Below, piece by piece: positions 2,904-64,000 of a DNA stretch of 64,000 nt. The position numbers and the translations under genes were made by a program. The notes under the pieces were generated by a model, which searched no databases, was not told the origin of the DNA, and saw nothing but the letters and a program-made list of their open reading frames with translations. Each line of letters starts with the position of its first letter. The stretch's first letter is position 1. This DNA comes from Planctomycetota bacterium (GTDB lineage: Bacteria > Planctomycetota > PLA2 > JAEUHO01), in contig CBDCWP010000011.1 of assembly GCA_965223505.1 (NCBI GenBank), forward strand, positions 1 to 64,000, in the 5' to 3' direction.

Positions 2904-4925
2904 TTAGCGCTTCAGCGCGTCCACTGCTGCGAGCAGCTCTTCGCCGGCGCGCAGGTCGCCGAGCTTGCCGTCGTCCCCTTCGATCAGCCGCCGCAGGGAC
3001 TCGAGTTGCAGCTTGACGACGACGGCTTCCTCGGCGCCGGCCGCGCGCGCCTCGGCGAGCGTGCGGAACGCCGCGGTGTCGAAGCCGCCGGAGAGCAGGA
3101 CCTGCGCGCGCAGATAGGCGCGGATCCCCGCGGTCTGCATGGAGGCCTTGTCGGCGAGCGTCGTCTCGACCTCGGCGAGCCGCTCGTTGAGCGCCTCTGC
3201 CGCGCGCACCGTGAAGGCGGCGGTGACCGCGTCCCCGCCGTCGGCCGACTCGAAGCTCCACGTCACGCTCTCGCCGGGCCGCGCGCCGTCACGCACCGTC
3301 GCGGGAATCGTCAGCACGTTCTCAGCGTCTTCGGGCGCGAACGGGATGCGCCCGAGCTCGCGCTCGCCCGACCGGAACATGATGTGGCCCTCGACCAGGT
3401 CCGACGCATCGACGCGGCACAGATCGAGGTCTTCCGCACGCACGTTCCCGCGGGGATACAGGAGCGCGACCTGCGGCGCGTCGGCGCTGCCGCGGTGCCG
3501 GTCCAGCTTGGCAAGCCGCACCGCACCGAACCCGTGCGCCTTCGCGAATCGCTCGAGCGCCTGCTCGTCCCCGTTGTCGGCGACGATCAGCGCGTACTCC
3601 TTCTCGATGTCCGCGCCGGCCTTCGCTTCGAACGCCACCGTGCGATCGCGGAAGCCCTCGGCGCGCATGGCCACGCGCACCGTGCCGGGCGCCATGCTGA
3701 CGCTCAAGGGCGTCGGCTGCCATTCGCCGTCGTTGATCGAGACCTCACCCGACGGCAGCGTGGCGAGCTTGATTCGCGCGTCGGCGGGCGGCTTCGTCGC
3801 GAAGAAGATCACAGCGCCGACGGCGATGAGCACGGAGGCGGCCAGGGCGATCGGGTGGTCCGTCAGCGTTCGCAGACCGCGGCGCGCGCGCGAGACGGGA
3901 CGGCCGGCGACCTTCTCGCCCCTGGCGAATTTGCGTAGATCCGCTGCCAGGTCCGCCGCAGTCGCGTAGCGGTCTTCGGGGCGTTTCTCCAGGCACTTGA
4001 GGATGATGCGCTCGAGATCGGGCGGCGTGGTCTGGTTGAGCTGGCGCGGGGCCCTCGGCCGCTCCCTGATCACCATGCCCATCAACGTGCTCAGGTCCGC
4101 CGCCTCGAACGGAGGCTTCGCGCTCGCCAGCTCGTACAGCGTCGCGCCGAGTCCGTAGACGTCGGTGCGCCCGTCCATGCTGCGGCCGTCGCCCTTCATC
4201 TGCTCGGGGCTCATGTAGAGCGGCGTCCCCAGAGCGTCACCCGTGCGCGTCATCTTCGCGCTCTGTGCACTACGCGCGAGGCCGAAGTCCGCCAGCACCG
4301 CGCGCCCGTTCGGCTCGATCATGATGTTCGACGGCTTGACGTCGCGGTGGACGATCTCCCGCTCGTGCAGCGCGTGCAACGCGTCGGCGATGTCCGCCAT
4401 GGCCGCGGCCATCGTCTTGGGATCCATGGTCCGGCCTTCGCGGACCTGCGTCGAGAGCGGCTCGCCGTCGAGGAGCGTCATCGCGTAGTAGGGGCGGTCG
4501 TCGACCTCTCCCGCCTCGTAGATGTCGACGATGTGATCGTGGCGCACCTGGGCGCACGCCCGCGCCTCGCGCCGGAAGCGCTCGCGGGCATTGTCGTTCT
4601 CGTCGAAGCCGGCGCGGAGCACCTTCAGGGCGACGTCGCGCCCCAGGCCCTCGTGGCGCGCCTTGTAGACGATGCCGACCGCGCCGCGGCCGAGCTCCGC
4701 GAGAAGGGTGTACGCTCCGAACGCCTTCGGGAACTCGTCGTCCGGGATCTCCGGCTCCATCGCCTTGTCGAGCGCTTCCTCGGCCTTGAGCAGCTCCTCG
4801 AACTCCGTGAAACCGGCGCCCAGCACCTCGCGGTACTGATCGGGATGCGTGTCGACCCCTGTTCGCCTGCGGCGGTCGTAGTCCTCGAGACACTCACCCA
4901 GAATGCGGTCGTGTTCGTTCATCAC
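2904..4925 (-). CDS. Hanks-type Ser/Thr protein kinase with TM helix and extracytoplasmic PEGA-like domain
   Basis: LGRGAVG, VALK, HRDVKPSN, DFG, GTPLYMSPE, DVYGLG; TM segment IALAASVLIAVGAVIFF. Confidence 0.95.
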   Translation of the reverse strand: MMNEHDRILGECLEDYDRRRRTGVDTHPDQYREVLGAGFTEFEELLKAEEALDKAMEPEIPDDEFPKAFGAYTLLAELGRGAVGIVYKARHEGLGRDVALKVLRAGFDENDNARERFRREARACAQVRHDHIVDIYEAGEVDDRPYYAMTLLDGEPLSTQVREGRTMDPKTMAAAMADIADALHALHEREIVHRDVKPSNIMIEPNGRAVLADFGLARSAQSAKMTRTGDALGTPLYMSPEQMKGDGRSMDGRTDVYGLGATLYELASAKPPFEAADLSTLMGMVIRERPRAPRQLNQTTPPDLERIILKCLEKRPEDRYATAADLAADLRKFARGEKVAGRPVSRARRGLRTLTDHPIALAASVLIAVGAVIFFATKPPADARIKLATLPSGEVSINDGEWQPTPLSVSMAPGTVRVAMRAEGFRDRTVAFEAKAGADIEKEYALIVADNGDEQALERFAKAHGFGAVRLAKLDRHRGSADAPQVALLYPRGNVRAEDLDLCRVDASDLVEGHIMFRSGERELGRIPFAPEDAENVLTIPATVRDGARPGESVTWSFESADGGDAVTAAFTVRAAEALNERLAEVETTLADKASMQTAGIRAYLRAQVLLSGGFDTAAFRTLAEARAAGAEEAVVVKLQLESLRRLIEGDDGKLGDLRAGEELLAAVDALKR

Positions 4926-5524
4926 CCCTCAGAGCGGAATCCGTCGTCCGATGTTGCGGCGTTTCTTTCCAAAGCCCTGATTTCTGCCCCGAGCGCCTTG
5001 AGCGCGCGACAGTACAGGGTTCGAACGGCGTTCTCGGATCGTTCCATCAGGGCGGCGACTTCCTTCACCTCCTGGTGCTCGATCCGGCGCAGCTGGATGA
5101 CGCGCCGGTAGTCCTCCGGCAGCGTCGAGATCGCCTGCTTGACCCGGCGGGCCTGCTCGGTGCGGGCGGCGGCCATCGACGGCGTAGTCTGCGAGAACGA
5201 GCGCCGGATGGTGGGCGGGCGCTGGCGCTTCTTCGCCGCGTGGTAGTCGACCTCGTCCCGGATGTGGTTCTCCGCGACCTTGAAGACCCACCCGAAGAAC
5301 ACCCGCTCGCCCTGCCCGCTGAACGCCGGAAGGGCCTTGTGGAGCTTCAGTAGCACCTCCTGGGCGATGTCCTCCGGCTCGACCTTGGTCTTGAGGTCGT
5401 ACGACATCCGCGTGGCGGCCCAGATCACCAGCCGCCGCCGGAGCCGCTCGAGCAGCTCGCCCTGGGCGATCTCGTCCCCCTTCAGGGCCTCGCCCAGGAG
5501 GTGCATGGTGCGGTTCGGGTCCAA
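4922..5524 (-). CDS. ECF-family RNA polymerase sigma-70 factor, coupled to the downstream kinase
   Basis: Region 2 (EDIAQEV...FFGWVFKVAENHIRD) and region 4 (LPEDYRRVIQLR...EVAALM...AVRTLYCRALKAL); GTGA overlap with the kinase; TTG start at 5524. Confidence 0.92.
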   Translation of the reverse strand: MDPNRTMHLLGEALKGDEIAQGELLERLRRRLVIWAATRMSYDLKTKVEPEDIAQEVLLKLHKALPAFSGQGERVFFGWVFKVAENHIRDEVDYHAAKKRQRPPTIRRSFSQTTPSMAAARTEQARRVKQAISTLPEDYRRVIQLRRIEHQEVKEVAALMERSENAVRTLYCRALKALGAEIRALERNAATSDDGFRSEG

Positions 5525-5606: not shown

Positions 5607-7667
5607 ATGCGCTTCCTCGTCCTCCTGCTCGCAGCCGCGTCGGTCCTGCTCGCCGCGCCCGCCGTCCGGGCCGAGGACCGAGCGTCCGCCGAGCTCGAGC
5701 ACCTCGAGGTCGAGCTGATCGCGGCGAGCACCCACGTCGAGCCGGGGAAGCCGCTGCGCGTGGGACTGAAGATCGAGACCGACGACGAGTGGCACGTCTA
5801 TTGGCAGAATCCCGGCGACTCGGGCGACCCGCTGGACATGGCGTGGGAGCTGCCCGCCGGCTTCACGGCCGGGCCGATCCTGTGGCCGGCGCCTTCGCGG
5901 TTCCTCTACGGGCCGATTGCGAACTACGGGTACGAGGGCGACGTGCTTCTGCCCGTGACGATCACGGTGCCGGAGACCATCGACGGCGACACGGTGACGA
6001 TTCGCGGCGACTTCTACGCGCTGGTTTGCCAGGAGGAATGCGTCCCCGTCGAGGCGACGCTGGCCTTGACGCTGCCGGTGGGGCAGGCGCGACCGGACGC
6101 GCGCTGGACCGCCGCGTTCGCCGCGGCCGACCGTGCGCAGCCGCGCGACCTGGAGGGCGACGTGAGCGTGCGGCGCGAGGACGGCGCGCTGGTGCTTCAG
6201 GCCGACGCGGCGCGCTTCGGCGGCGACGCGCTCTTCTTCCCGTACGAGGAGGCGATCGAAGGGGCGGCGCAGCAGAAGGCGACGCGCAGCGGCGAGCGCC
6301 TGACGCTTCGGCTCGAGGAAGCGAGCGGATTGGACCGCGCACCGGATCGGCTCCGAGGCGTGCTTGTCATCCAGGCGGCGGACGGGCCGGTTGCGTTCCG
6401 CGTCGACGCGCCGGTCGACGGCGCCGCGCCGGCCCCGGCGGAGCCGGAGGGCTCCATCTGGCAGGCGCTGCTGCTCGCGCTCGTCGGTGGGCTGATCCTG
6501 AACGTCATGCCGTGCGTGCTTCCGGTGCTCTCGATCAAGATCCTCGGCTTCGTCCAGAACGCGCAGGACGAGCCGGCGCGCGTACGGCGTCACGGGTACG
6601 CCTTCGGCATCGGCGTGCTCGCGTCGTTCCTCGTGCTCGGCGGGTTGCTGCAGGCGTTTCGCTTCGCGGGCGAAGGGCTCGGTTGGGGATTCCAACTGCA
6701 GGATCCGATCTTCGTCGCGTGCATGACCGTGTTGCTGATGCTCATCGGCCTCAACCTCGTCGGCGTGTTCGAGTTCGGCGCCGGGTTGATGAACGTGGCC
6801 GGCAAGGCCGCCGGGAAGATCGAGAGCAAGGGCTACACGGGGTCGTTCTGGAGCGGCGTGCTTGCGACCGTCATCGCGACGCCGTGTACGGCGCCGGGCA
6901 TGGGCTATGCGCTCGGCTACGCGCTCACCGTGCCGGTCGTTCCGTCGATGCTCGTGATCTCGATGGTGGGTGTCGGCATGGCGCTGCCGTATGTCGTGTT
7001 GTCCATCTTTCCCCGCTGGCTCTCGAAGGTGCCGAAGCCGGGGCCGTGGATGGACACGTTCAAACGCGTGATGGCGTTCCCCATCTTCGCGACGGCCATC
7101 TGGCTTGCGTGGGTGTTCGGCCGGCAGGTCGGCGTGAACGGGATGTCGGCGCTCCTCGCCGGTCTGTTGTTCGTCGCGATGGGGTGTTGGATCTTCGGTC
7201 ACTTCGGCGCCGTCACGCGCCGGCCTCGCGTGCGCTACGTCGTCGGGTACGGGCTCGCGCTCGTGTTCGTCGTCGTCGGCGTCGCAGTGCCGATCTGGGC
7301 CGCGTCGCGCACGGTCGTCGAGTGGGAGCCGTACAGCGAAGCGCGCATCGCCGCGCATCGCGCGGCGGGGCGGCCGGTGCTGCTGGACTTCACCGCCGAC
7401 TGGTGAGCGACCTGCCTCTACAACGAGTTCCAGGTCCTGGAGTCGAAGACAGTGCTGGAGGCCGTTCGGGAGCACGACGTGGCGCTCGTGAAGGCCGACT
7501 GGACCAAGCGCGACGCCGCCATCACCAGGGCGCTGGCCGCGTTCGGCCGCAGCAGCGTGCCCCTCTACGTGGTCTACAGCCCGGATCCGGGCCGCGAGCC
7601 GGAGGTGCTCCCGATCGTGATCACCGAAGGCATGGTCGTGGACGCGATCCGGCGCGCCGCCCGGTAG
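5607..7667 (+). CDS. dsbD: thiol:disulfide interchange protein DsbD (alpha-beta-gamma), predicted selenoprotein with Sec at TGA 7404-7406
   Basis: Signal peptide; alpha domain WHVYWQNPGDSG...CQEEC; TM domain MPCVLP and TPCTAP; thioredoxin domain LDFTADW-TGA-ATC continues in the same frame (KADWT, GRSSVPLYVVY) to TAG 7665-7667. Confidence 0.9.
7424..7445 (+). promoter_or_regulatory. candidate bacterial SECIS hairpin
   Basis: CGA-G-TTCCAG-GTC-CTGGAG-TCG stem-loop starting 17 nt after the in-frame TGA, with G at the start of the apical loop. Confidence 0.75.
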
Positions 7668-7767
7668 ACGAAGGGCCTAGTCGAAGGTCCCGCCGGCCTG
7701 GGCGCCGCAGCGTCCGGATCACTACACTCCGGGTTCAAGCAAGCCGTACGCAAAGAGGAGATCCCGC

Positions 7768-8472
7768 ATGACGACTCGCACGTTTTGGCTGTTGGCCCTT
7801 CCGCTCCTGATGGCCGGGCTCGTTTTCACGGCCGGCGCCGCGACCGCCGAGGACACGCCGGCGGGCGAGAAGCCGAAGGCCGACGAGAAGAAGGAGGAGG
7901 CGAAGAAGGCCGCCGACTTCGAGCTCAAGGACTACAACGACAAGACCCACAAGCTGTCCGACTACACGAAGCAGAAGAAGTGGGTCATCCTCGAGTGGGT
8001 GAACCACGGCTGTCCGTTCGTGAAGAAGCACTACGACGCGAGCCACAAGCACATGCAGGGCTTGCAGAAGAAGTACTGCGAGAAGGACGTGATCTGGTTG
8101 TCGATCTGCTCGACGAACCCCGACCACAAGGACTACCTCACGAAGGAGCAGTGGAAGGCCAAGGACAAGGAGCTCGGCGGCGCCGGCACGGCCGTGTTGA
8201 TGGACGCCGACGGGAAGGTGGGGCGGCTGTACGGTGCGCGTACGACGCCGGAGATCTTCGTGATCAACCCCAAGGGCGAGATCGTCTACCACGGCGCGAT
8301 CGACGACAAGCGCCGCCCGCGTCCGGTCGACATCGTGCTCGAGGCGAAGAACTACCTCGAGGAGGTGATGGACGCGGTGTTGGCTGGCAAGCCGTCGCCG
8401 CACAAGACGACCAAGCCGTACGGGTGCTCGGTCAAGTACGCGAAGAAGCCCGCGGCGGACACGGATTCGTAG
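7768..8472 (+). CDS. exported redoxin (AhpC/TSA, thioredoxin-fold) protein
   Basis: Signal peptide; DFELKD, LEWVNHGCPFV, YGARTTPE, YHGAIDD, PYGCSVKY; SD GAGGAG. Confidence 0.9.
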   Translation: MTTRTFWLLALPLLMAGLVFTAGAATAEDTPAGEKPKADEKKEEAKKAADFELKDYNDKTHKLSDYTKQKKWVILEWVNHGCPFVKKHYDASHKHMQGLQKKYCEKDVIWLSICSTNPDHKDYLTKEQWKAKDKELGGAGTAVLMDADGKVGRLYGARTTPEIFVINPKGEIVYHGAIDDKRRPRPVDIVLEAKNYLEEVMDAVLAGKPSPHKTTKPYGCSVKYAKKPAADTDS

Positions 8473-8513: not shown

Positions 8514-8560
8514 GCCGCGTGGGGTGTGCACGCGGCGGGCGGGGCCTCGCCCCGCCCCTA
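8514..8560. terminator. two GC-rich hairpins between convergent genes; the second is REP-like
   Basis: GCCGCGTG/CACGCGGC (8514-8536) and GGGCGGGGC-CTC-GCCCCGCCC (8537-8557); no U-tract. Confidence 0.45.
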
Positions 8561-62340: not shown

Positions 62341-64000
62341 ATGAGGCGCATGCTGCTCGTCGGATTGGCCGTACTTCTTGGTGCCGTCGGGGTGCTGTTC
62401 GTCGCGCAGCAGCCCCCCGAAGAAGACACCGACGGTCTTTCGTTGACGATCGATGACGAAGCGCGCATGCACTCGCCGCGCGCGGGACGACCGCCGGGAC
62501 TCGAAGGAGGGGCCGAAGGCGCAAGCGCGTCCACGCCGGGGGATGACAACGAGCCCGTTGCCGCACCGAAGTCGGGGCCGGCCGAGGTGTTGGTGCTGTC
62601 GGCCGACACCGGAGCGCCGCTTGCGGGTGTGCGTGTGACCGAGGCAGACGGTGCGATGCTCGGGATCACCGACGACGACGGGCTCGTCGACCTCGCCGAC
62701 GTTCCCCCGGACGGCGTCGAGGTCCGCGCGACGCGGGACGGCTTTCGAGAGGCCTCGGCCCACGTCCGACCGCGCCGGCGGACCGTCGTCGAACTCATGC
62801 CCGGCATCACGGTGTCGGGACGCATCGTGCGCGCCGGCGCCGACGGCGACCCGGGCGTCGCGAAGGTGTTCGTGTTCGACGTGGACCGGCGCGAGCAGAT
62901 CGCCGCCTTCGCCACCGACGCGACGGGGAGGTTCGAGATCGACGGCGTTCGGCCGAATCACCCCTTCCTGACGGTCGTCGAGCTCGAGGATCTCGTTCCG
63001 CAAACCGTGCGGCTGCTGGCGGACGCCGCGACGACCGACCTGGAGGTCGTCGTCGGTGCGGGCGCTCGCCTTTCGGGGCGGGTGCTCGACGCGCAGGGCA
63101 GGCCCTGGCCCGACGTGGAGGTGCGTCTGCTCCCGAAGGGCGGGCTGTTGTTCGAGAACCATCGCTCGCCGTCCGACGTCACGCCGGGCGAACGAGCGCG
63201 CATCGCCGCTGCGACGCCGGTGACGCGGACCGACGCGCACGGCCGCTACGCCTTTGCCGGCATTCCGTTGCACTGGACGTTCGAGGCGGTCGCGGTCCTC
63301 GCGCCGCGTTGCGAGGCGCGAAGCGGCGCCCAACGTTTCGAAGCATCGGAAGCCCGTCGTGAGCTCGACATTCGTGCGCCGGAGGAAGCCTCGCTGCGCA
63401 TTCGCGTGGAGGACGAAGATCGCGCCGTTGTCGCCGGCGTGACGCTGATCATCGACGCGGCCGGCGGGCGTTGGACGATCCAGAGCGAGGACGAACGCAC
63501 CGATGGGGCGTTGCTGCTTCGACACCTGACGCCGAGCAACGTCACGGTGACGGCGGCTCGGCCGAGCGCGCCGACGCGCAGCGAAACGGTCGAGCTCATC
63601 GAAGGCCGGGAAGCGAAGGTGACGATCGTGTTGCCGAATGGAACCGTCGTTCGGGGGCGGGTGCTCGACAAGCGCGGCAACGTGATCGCGAATGCGCGGG
63701 TGAGCTGGGCGGGTTCCGATGAAGAGGACCGGGTCGAGGTCCGTTCCGGCGAGAGCGGCAAGTTCGAGCTTTCGGGCATCACGTCGCCTACCGGCACGCT
63801 CCGGATCTCGGCGCACGACGAGCTCCACGGTCGGTTCGGCTTCGAGACGCTCGTCTTCGAAGACTTCGTTCCCGGCGGCCGGCCGCTGGAGGTCATGCTC
63901 AAGGACGGCACGCGCGTCGACGGTGTCTTCAAACAGCTGCCCGAAGGCGCGCAGGTCGTCGGAGGACTGCTCGGGACCGACGAACGGCGCCTCGACCTGG
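62341..64000 (+). CDS. membrane-anchored carboxypeptidase-regulatory-like repeat protein, truncated at window end
   Basis: MRRMLLVGLAVLLGAVGVLF TM; repeats such as SGRVLDAQGRP...TDAHGRY; no stop seen before 64000. Confidence 0.78.
   Translation, partial: MRRMLLVGLAVLLGAVGVLFVAQQPPEEDTDGLSLTIDDEARMHSPRAGRPPGLEGGAEGASASTPGDDNEPVAAPKSGPAEVLVLSADTGAPLAGVRVTEADGAMLGITDDDGLVDLADVPPDGVEVRATRDGFREASAHVRPRRRTVVELMPGITVSGRIVRAGADGDPGVAKVFVFDVDRREQIAAFATDATGRFEIDGVRPNHPFLTVVELEDLVPQTVRLLADAATTDLEVVVGAGARLSGRVLDAQGRPWPDVEVRLLPKGGLLFENHRSPSDVTPGERARIAAATPVTRTDAHGRYAFAGIPLHWTFEAVAVLAPRCEARSGAQRFEASEARRELDIRAPEEASLRIRVEDEDRAVVAGVTLIIDAAGGRWTIQSEDERTDGALLLRHLTPSNVTVTAARPSAPTRSETVELIEGREAKVTIVLPNGTVVRGRVLDKRGNVIANARVSWAGSDEEDRVEVRSGESGKFELSGITSPTGTLRISAHDELHGRFGFETLVFEDFVPGGRPLEVMLKDGTRVDGVFKQLPEGAQVVGGLLGTDERRLDL

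Follow-up and report, generated by a model that had tools for sequence, protein, structure and literature searches.

The window analysed here, a stretch of 64,000 nucleotides from a Planctomycetota bacterium (contig CBDCWP010000011.1 of assembly GCA_965223505.1), carries a dsbD-family gene whose reading frame meets an in-frame TGA, and the locus raises the question of whether this codon ends the protein or encodes selenocysteine (Sec). The original prediction had taken it for Sec, and we come to the same reading with a probability of about 0.9: TGA-600 most probably encodes the selenocysteine of the gamma-domain active site, and from the sequence evidence we infer the insertion of selenium itself. 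Read from its ATG through the TGA up to the TAG at 7665–7667 (Table 1), the frame encodes 686 residues. The TGA stands at residue 600, preceded by DFTADW and followed by the in-frame codons GCG ACC TGC (A-T-C), and the frame stays open for another 86 codons, with the strings KADWT and GRSSVPLYVVY among them. Pfam finds DsbD_N, DsbD_TM and Thioredoxin_7 in this order, all over their cut-offs, and each domain holds a redox pair, that of the gamma domain being U600/C603; the gamma domain also matches the solved DsbD gamma domains 4ip1, 1uc7, 2fwe and 1vrs. The claim of a full-length DsbD thus holds, the 86 codons past the TGA are recognisable gamma-domain sequence both to the eye and by their Thioredoxin_7 match, and the remaining redox cysteines (CQEEC; PC...PC) are intact as described. 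In the public protein collection the product is present as a truncated protein of 599 residues (P0002), which is the kind of misannotation that had been foreseen.

Table 1: Features of the dsbD locus and its neighbour (positions in the window).
Feature	Position	Strand	Basis or remark
Full-length dsbD-family gene, 686 codons + TAG	5607..7667	+	TGA 7404-7406 putatively read as Sec
Probable signal peptide MRFLVLLLAAASVLLAAPAVRA	5607..5672	+	by eye from the translation
Alpha domain DsbD_N, residues 43-155	5733..6071	+	Pfam 61.4 bits, cut-off 25
Alpha Cys pair C141-QEE-C145	6027-6029, 6039-6041	+	read from sequence
Beta (transmembrane) domain DsbD_TM, residues 285-501	6459..7109	+	Pfam 58.9 bits, cut-off 27.1
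Membrane P-C motif cysteines C303 (MPCV) and C427 (TPCT)	6513-6515, 6885-6887	+	read from sequence
Gamma domain Thioredoxin_7, residues 572-659, predicted active site W-U600-A-T-C603	7320..7583	+	Pfam 65.8 bits, cut-off 27
TGA putatively read as Sec (U600)	7404..7406	+	14/14 orthologs TGC/TGT; contigs of X1, X2, X3 agree
Resolving Cys603	7413-7415	+	sequence
SECIS-like hairpin CGA-G-UUCCAG / GUC / CUGGAG-UCG	7424..7445	+	60-nt fold and descriptor
Secreted AhpC/TSA-Redoxin family protein, 234 aa, GCPF motif	7768..8472	+	100 nt past the dsbD stop
Terminator-like GC hairpin (9 pairs, all G-C) with T-rich tail, after the redoxin gene	8537..8557	+	consensus match only

To see what stands at the place of the TGA in other DsbD proteins, the C-terminal 122 residues were compared by tblastn with the orthologs in 40 related genomes. 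This gave 14 non-self matches with 31–61% identity, all of which have a Cys codon (TGC in 11, TGT in three) in a W-C-x-x-C motif at the aligned position, and together with the sequence itself this places the TGA exactly at the first Cys of the gamma WCxxC, as had been predicted. The in-frame UGA is aligned with Cys in these homologs and with TGA in other DsbD lineages described below, which is one mark of a recoded UGA. Among the matches that the searched collections list, none exceeds 58% identity to the protein. The 119 others in the list all carry the thioredoxin domain and are therefore Cys forms, so that this particular TGA is not seen in any of them.

The best surviving alternative is a recent nonsense mutation of TGC or TGT to TGA, by which the gene would now make a dead or altered alpha-beta protein of 599 residues without gamma domain, the tail being as yet undecayed. 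A single base change (TGC to TGA) would suffice for this, the TGA is shared by no close relative (none among the 40 related genomes) and a second DsbD-family gene in the genome, located on contig C36 with 28% identity and no stop, could compensate for the loss. The open tail as such is weak evidence at 67% GC, where one of its two other frames is stop-free as well, but the tail has kept full identity to the orthologs and the same codon signature: identity to the ten nearest Cys forms is 46–64% after U600 and 53–57% before it, and GC3 is 0.95 after and 0.92 before, so that the tail is not decaying. With the further points given below, we regard a nonsense mutation as improbable.

The codon itself was checked in contigs assembled from the runs X1 and X2 (both sample S1) and X3 (sample S2), which cover 7200–7700 as a whole (X1), 7313–7700 (X2) and 7200–7443 (X3) and have TGA at 7404–7406 with zero differences; the evidence consists of assembled contigs at low depth (2–7) from two samples of the same study, and the assembly analysed here may itself derive from one of the runs. 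Among the sequencing runs listed for the locus none is an RNA run. The presence of the TGA allele in two samples also speaks against a nonsense mutation. A sequencing or assembly error at position 7406 with TGC or TGT as the true codon can be given next to no weight, as despite the low contig depth (2 to 6.8) and the possible identity of one run with the assembly's own source the three runs were assembled separately and agree over the TGA site, and such an error would leave the SECIS-like hairpin, which is absent from the Cys orthologs, unexplained.

This hairpin, a stem-loop with a GU apical loop shortly past the UGA, is the second mark of recoding and had been expected from the prediction. 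Folding of the 60 nt after each validated TGA of the genome revealed a recurrent hairpin with the apical loop GGUC, GUC or GUU about 19–35 nt past the UGA. Its counterpart in dsbD lies 18–39 nt downstream of the UGA. The stem is built of nine pairs with a bulged G at 7427, the apical loop GUC is at 7434–7436 with the loop G at +28 after the TGA, and folded alone the hairpin reaches −7.5 kcal/mol. For counting we used a descriptor that asks for five or more contiguous pairs, with three or more of them being G-C, and for a loop of 3–7 nt in which GU begins at the first or second position and its G falls between +18 and +36. As the descriptor was written after the hairpins had been seen, the following statistics are somewhat optimistic. 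It fits 15 of 17 Sec sites of the genome (16 redox genes and selD) and the dsbD site with seven contiguous pairs. The background amounts to 411 of 6430 Cys codons in long ORFs (6.4%), or 88 (1.4%) if at least seven pairs are required, and to 43 of 665 ordinary TGA stops, and none of the 14 Cys-form orthologs has such a hairpin at the equivalent place. A nonsense mutation would have to meet with a seven-pair GU-loop hairpin by chance. Other results on the RNA were less favourable. Rfam gave no SECIS family, neither over the window at gathering thresholds nor over 7350–7520 at E values up to 10, where any matches were at chance level. The minimum free energy fold of 7395–7480 was no better than that of shuffled sequences (z = +0.87) and preferred a competing helix GACCUG/CAGGUC, the energy of the whole segment being uninformative because the genome has 67% GC. 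A covariance approach with the 16 other Sec sites gave stems that were out of register in MAFFT due to their variable loop length, and RNAalifold found no consensus.

The third mark of recoding is the machinery for it, which is complete in this genome (5.15 Mb in 44 contigs, 92% complete, 67% GC). The search for selA, selB, selC and selD, by which the prediction could have failed, found all of them, with selA at 507 bits, selB at 336, selD at 338 and tRNA-Sec at 69, all over curated cut-offs; ARAGORN assigns the anticodon tca to the tRNA-Sec and selD itself has one in-frame TGA. A genome scan for TGAs that lie in frame and are flanked on either side by codons with strong third-position GC yielded 144 candidates, 19 of which are further TGAs in redox motifs such as WUxxC, UGPC, UPHC, CxxU and SYTUxPF. 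A Pfam domain extends across the TGA in 16 of these 19, in 13 of them with a score above the Pfam cut-off, with AhpC/Redoxin, Thioredoxin_7, Thioredoxin_2, CMD/AhpD, deiodinase, DUF3179 and ArsC being represented. At least 16 other redox genes of the genome thus have a TGA at the active site, and as the organism is rich in selenoproteins the prior is higher for any active-site TGA. Taken together, the Cys and TGA homologs, the SECIS-like hairpin, the sel genes and the contigs support the Sec interpretation of the dsbD TGA.

Some of the other TGA genes deserve a description of their own. On contig C24 (TGA at 62874; L056:103-951, minus strand) a deiodinase-like selenoprotein with the motif SYT-U-QPF and a T4_deiodinase match of 93.8 bits has an N-terminal EF-hand region and a GGUC-loop hairpin at +23. 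Contig C12 (TGA at 91640; L054:51-953, plus strand) encodes a protein with a DUF3179 match of 155 bits, in which the TGA lies in a Y-U-VIC motif and is accompanied by an eight-pair GUUU-loop hairpin; DUF3179 is not seen in the accessible part of the 2026 review of prokaryotic selenoproteomes (PMC13188914). Contig C30 harbours two tandem paralogous genes for secreted Thioredoxin_7-like proteins (TGAs at 72520 and 73464; L059, minus strand), each with U-G-x-C and a hairpin and with scores of 24.3 and 26.3 bits compared to the Pfam cut-off of 27. A gene on contig C34 (TGA at 130208; L060:309-953, plus strand) encodes a secreted Thioredoxin_7 domain with G-U-STC followed by the in-frame start of a PMSR domain and, judged by its sequence, looks like a fusion of a Sec-thioredoxin and MsrA (methionine sulfoxide reductase A). 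Three more in-frame TGAs, C44:227969 (plus strand, Q-U-PFC), C39:7798 (minus strand, GC-U-G) and C44:232837 (minus strand, FC-U), found in loci L064, L067 and L068, gave no Pfam match at an E value of 0.01 or better; the hairpin descriptor fits both candidates on C44, and all three may be uncatalogued selenoproteins.

How widespread Sec is at this site in DsbD proteins can be seen from two collections. In a scan of the phylum (401 genomes) ten listed DsbD-family matches that span the C-terminal domain have exactly one TGA, and adding one locus from a genome of the same family U is located at the first Cys of CxxC in 10 of the 11 TGA-bearing loci. No UxxC was found in locus L079 of genome G048, and a TGA-bearing match in genome G039 had no interpretable frame in the ORF listing. 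Two of the loci are 40–41% identical to the DsbD described here and show the context IDFTADW-U-LTC with the hairpin at +25; the descriptor fits less often among the EFTGxxUxNC types, which are more distant (4 of the 10 loci). In the collection of species-representative genomes DFTADW-TGA-xx-Cys is present in at least 118 stretches, and among the matches listed nearly all have Planctomycetota, Pirellulaceae or Planctomycetaceae in their titles and some come from Verrucomicrobiota, Kiritimatiellia and Omnitrophota. From these at least 118 loci 80 were fetched. In 69 of the 80 the sequence ahead of the TGA is homologous to the transmembrane part of this gene, in 56 the tail past the TGA is homologous as well, and 49 of these 56 have the hairpin, mostly with the loop G at +24 or +25. 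A random stop would therefore have had to fall on just that codon which encodes Sec in many other DsbDs, which is a further argument against a nonsense mutation. Sec-DsbD is a common selenoprotein type in Planctomycetota that is usually annotated as truncated, and the gene described here is a fairly ordinary example of it.

The rest of the DFTADW-TGA-xx-Cys matches include, besides noise, small Sec-thioredoxins of Planococcus and Planomicrobium (L099, L108, L122, L146). These are small thioredoxin-like ORFs from Firmicutes with DFTADW-U-PSC and a nine-pair hairpin with a GGU loop and the G at +25, which share the motif with DsbD and are not DsbD proteins themselves. In genome G156 a stop-free stretch of 855 codons (C13:33200-36000, plus strand; L077) contains both EFTGAG-U-LVC and EFTGFS-U-LNC, and its sequence suggests two tandem Sec-containing DsbD-like units. 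A genome of the same family (G001:C50, L070:819-3113, minus strand) encodes a DsbD paralog of 764 amino acids with 27% identity and W-U-HYC in its C-terminal thioredoxin domain, at which site the descriptor found no hairpin.

With Sec forms and Cys forms both at hand we reconstructed the origin of the TGA. The FastTree phylogeny comprised 181 rows: the dsbD described here, 62 other Sec forms chosen by motif and the 118 Cys forms that match its protein best, a Cys row that lacks CxxC having been dropped. The choice of rows biases the sampling. In this tree two changes of state are needed: a branch sets the other Sec forms apart, and the gene described here groups with 36 Cys forms in a set of 37 rows (support 97). 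An IQ-TREE analysis of a subsample of 41 rows without four long-branch Sec rows likewise united it with 26 Cys forms in one clade (SH-aLRT 92), and a constraint holding all Sec forms together cost 11.3 lnL units (p-AU = 0.141). An independent change from Cys to Sec in this DsbD is thus favoured by the sequence data, though not established. It would fit the differing position of the hairpin, with the loop G at +24 or +25 in the DFTADW-U-xTCK Sec-DsbDs and at +28 here, and the different residues by which it is encoded. The TGA and SECIS of this gene may accordingly have arisen separately from those of the large Planctomycetota Sec-DsbD clade, and if so, the gene would show a young SECIS evolving within a coding sequence. 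We also considered a wider and rather doubtful scenario in which Sec and a new in-frame SECIS were gained independently inside a Cys-DsbD lineage and DsbD became the electron hub of a selenium-based redox network of the envelope. By eye at least ten of the UxxC selenoproteins of the genome have N-termini that resemble signal peptides. If the hub existed, the secreted UxxC selenoproteins would be DsbD clients and the organism a natural system for a compartment-wide shift of thiol chemistry to selenium.

In E. coli DsbD the electrons pass from cytoplasmic thioredoxin to the membrane pair, then to the gamma CxxC, to the alpha pair and finally to the exported clients. By homology with this enzyme the gene would be an intact one for a DsbD-type transmembrane protein-disulfide reductase, in which UGA-600 would be decoded as Sec by SelB and tRNA-Sec as directed by the downstream hairpin and the electrons would flow from cytoplasmic thioredoxin over C303/C427, U600-xx-C603 and C141/C145 to exported clients. 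U600 would occupy the exposed and nucleophilic first position of the CxxC motif, where a selenolate should speed both exchange steps. The secreted redoxin encoded next to dsbD is plausibly among the clients and can be considered a candidate for this role. Upstream and divergent from dsbD (2904–5524, minus strand) are the genes for an ECF-type sigma factor (4922–5524) and a Ser/Thr protein kinase (2904–4925).

The gene is not novel in kind, as DFTADW-TGA-xx-Cys is found in the genomes of at least 118 species, most of them Planctomycetota, and its main value lies in annotation and in the evolutionary case that it presents. This dsbD is cut by gene callers at 599 residues, as are presumably the Sec-DsbD genes in over 100 species-level genomes, and such truncated calls hide an intact envelope-reducing pathway. 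A curated Sec-DsbD model would correct many records. The disulfide cascade of DsbD is well understood, and a natural variant with Sec at its central relay would therefore also be a clean system to study the contribution of Sec to thiol-disulfide exchange.

When the protein is compared with known families, the UxxC motif of the published cd02953-type family is present in it, and we take cd02953 to be the DsbD-gamma model of CDD. The NCBIfam model PRK00293 gave 96.4 bits compared to its cut-off of 330, and the protein therefore belongs to a distant DsbD subfamily and not to the E. coli subfamily. Its best NCBIfam match is TsoB (NF045694), a rhodanese/DsbD fusion-like selenoprotein that shares the transmembrane and thioredoxin region with the protein described here. 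We rejected membership in this family, as the score of 132.7 bits is far below the cut-off of 805 and Pfam finds no rhodanese domain; among the NCBIfam models that match the protein none other than TsoB is a Sec-DsbD model. The accessible part of the 2026 review (PMC13188914) lists the TsoB motif as UxxxxU and names DsbD only within TsoB, with PF02683, PF13899 and CcdA being absent from it.

The original prediction had cautioned that this might not be an altogether new family, and the caution was justified both by the wide occurrence of Sec-DsbD and by the UxxC interchange selenoproteins in print. Among the papers that a literature search on DsbD selenoproteins brought up, none gives an account of a full-length Sec-DsbD in its main text. 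A selenoprotein family named 'thiol disulfide interchange protein' with UxxC appears in table rows of a 2008 paper, and the accessible parts of PMC1794560 and PMC9312934 contain the same family with its architecture not given. Like the protein described here it is a thioredoxin-fold UxxC selenoprotein, but in the portions available it is confined to table rows with no mention of a transmembrane or three-domain architecture and is not named DsbD as such. With the E. coli-type DsbD our protein has in common the three Pfam domains in the same order, the three redox pairs and the match to solved gamma chains, whereas it differs in the TGA codon for the first residue of the gamma CxxC and in the CxxxC spacing of its alpha pair. 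Also close are the Sec-DsbDs of Planctomycetota, Verrucomicrobiota and Kiritimatiellota (DFTADW-U-xTCK..NEAVALN), which show the same architecture, the same DFTADW-U-xx-C motif and a GU-loop hairpin, even if they are only about 30–44% identical to the DsbD described here.
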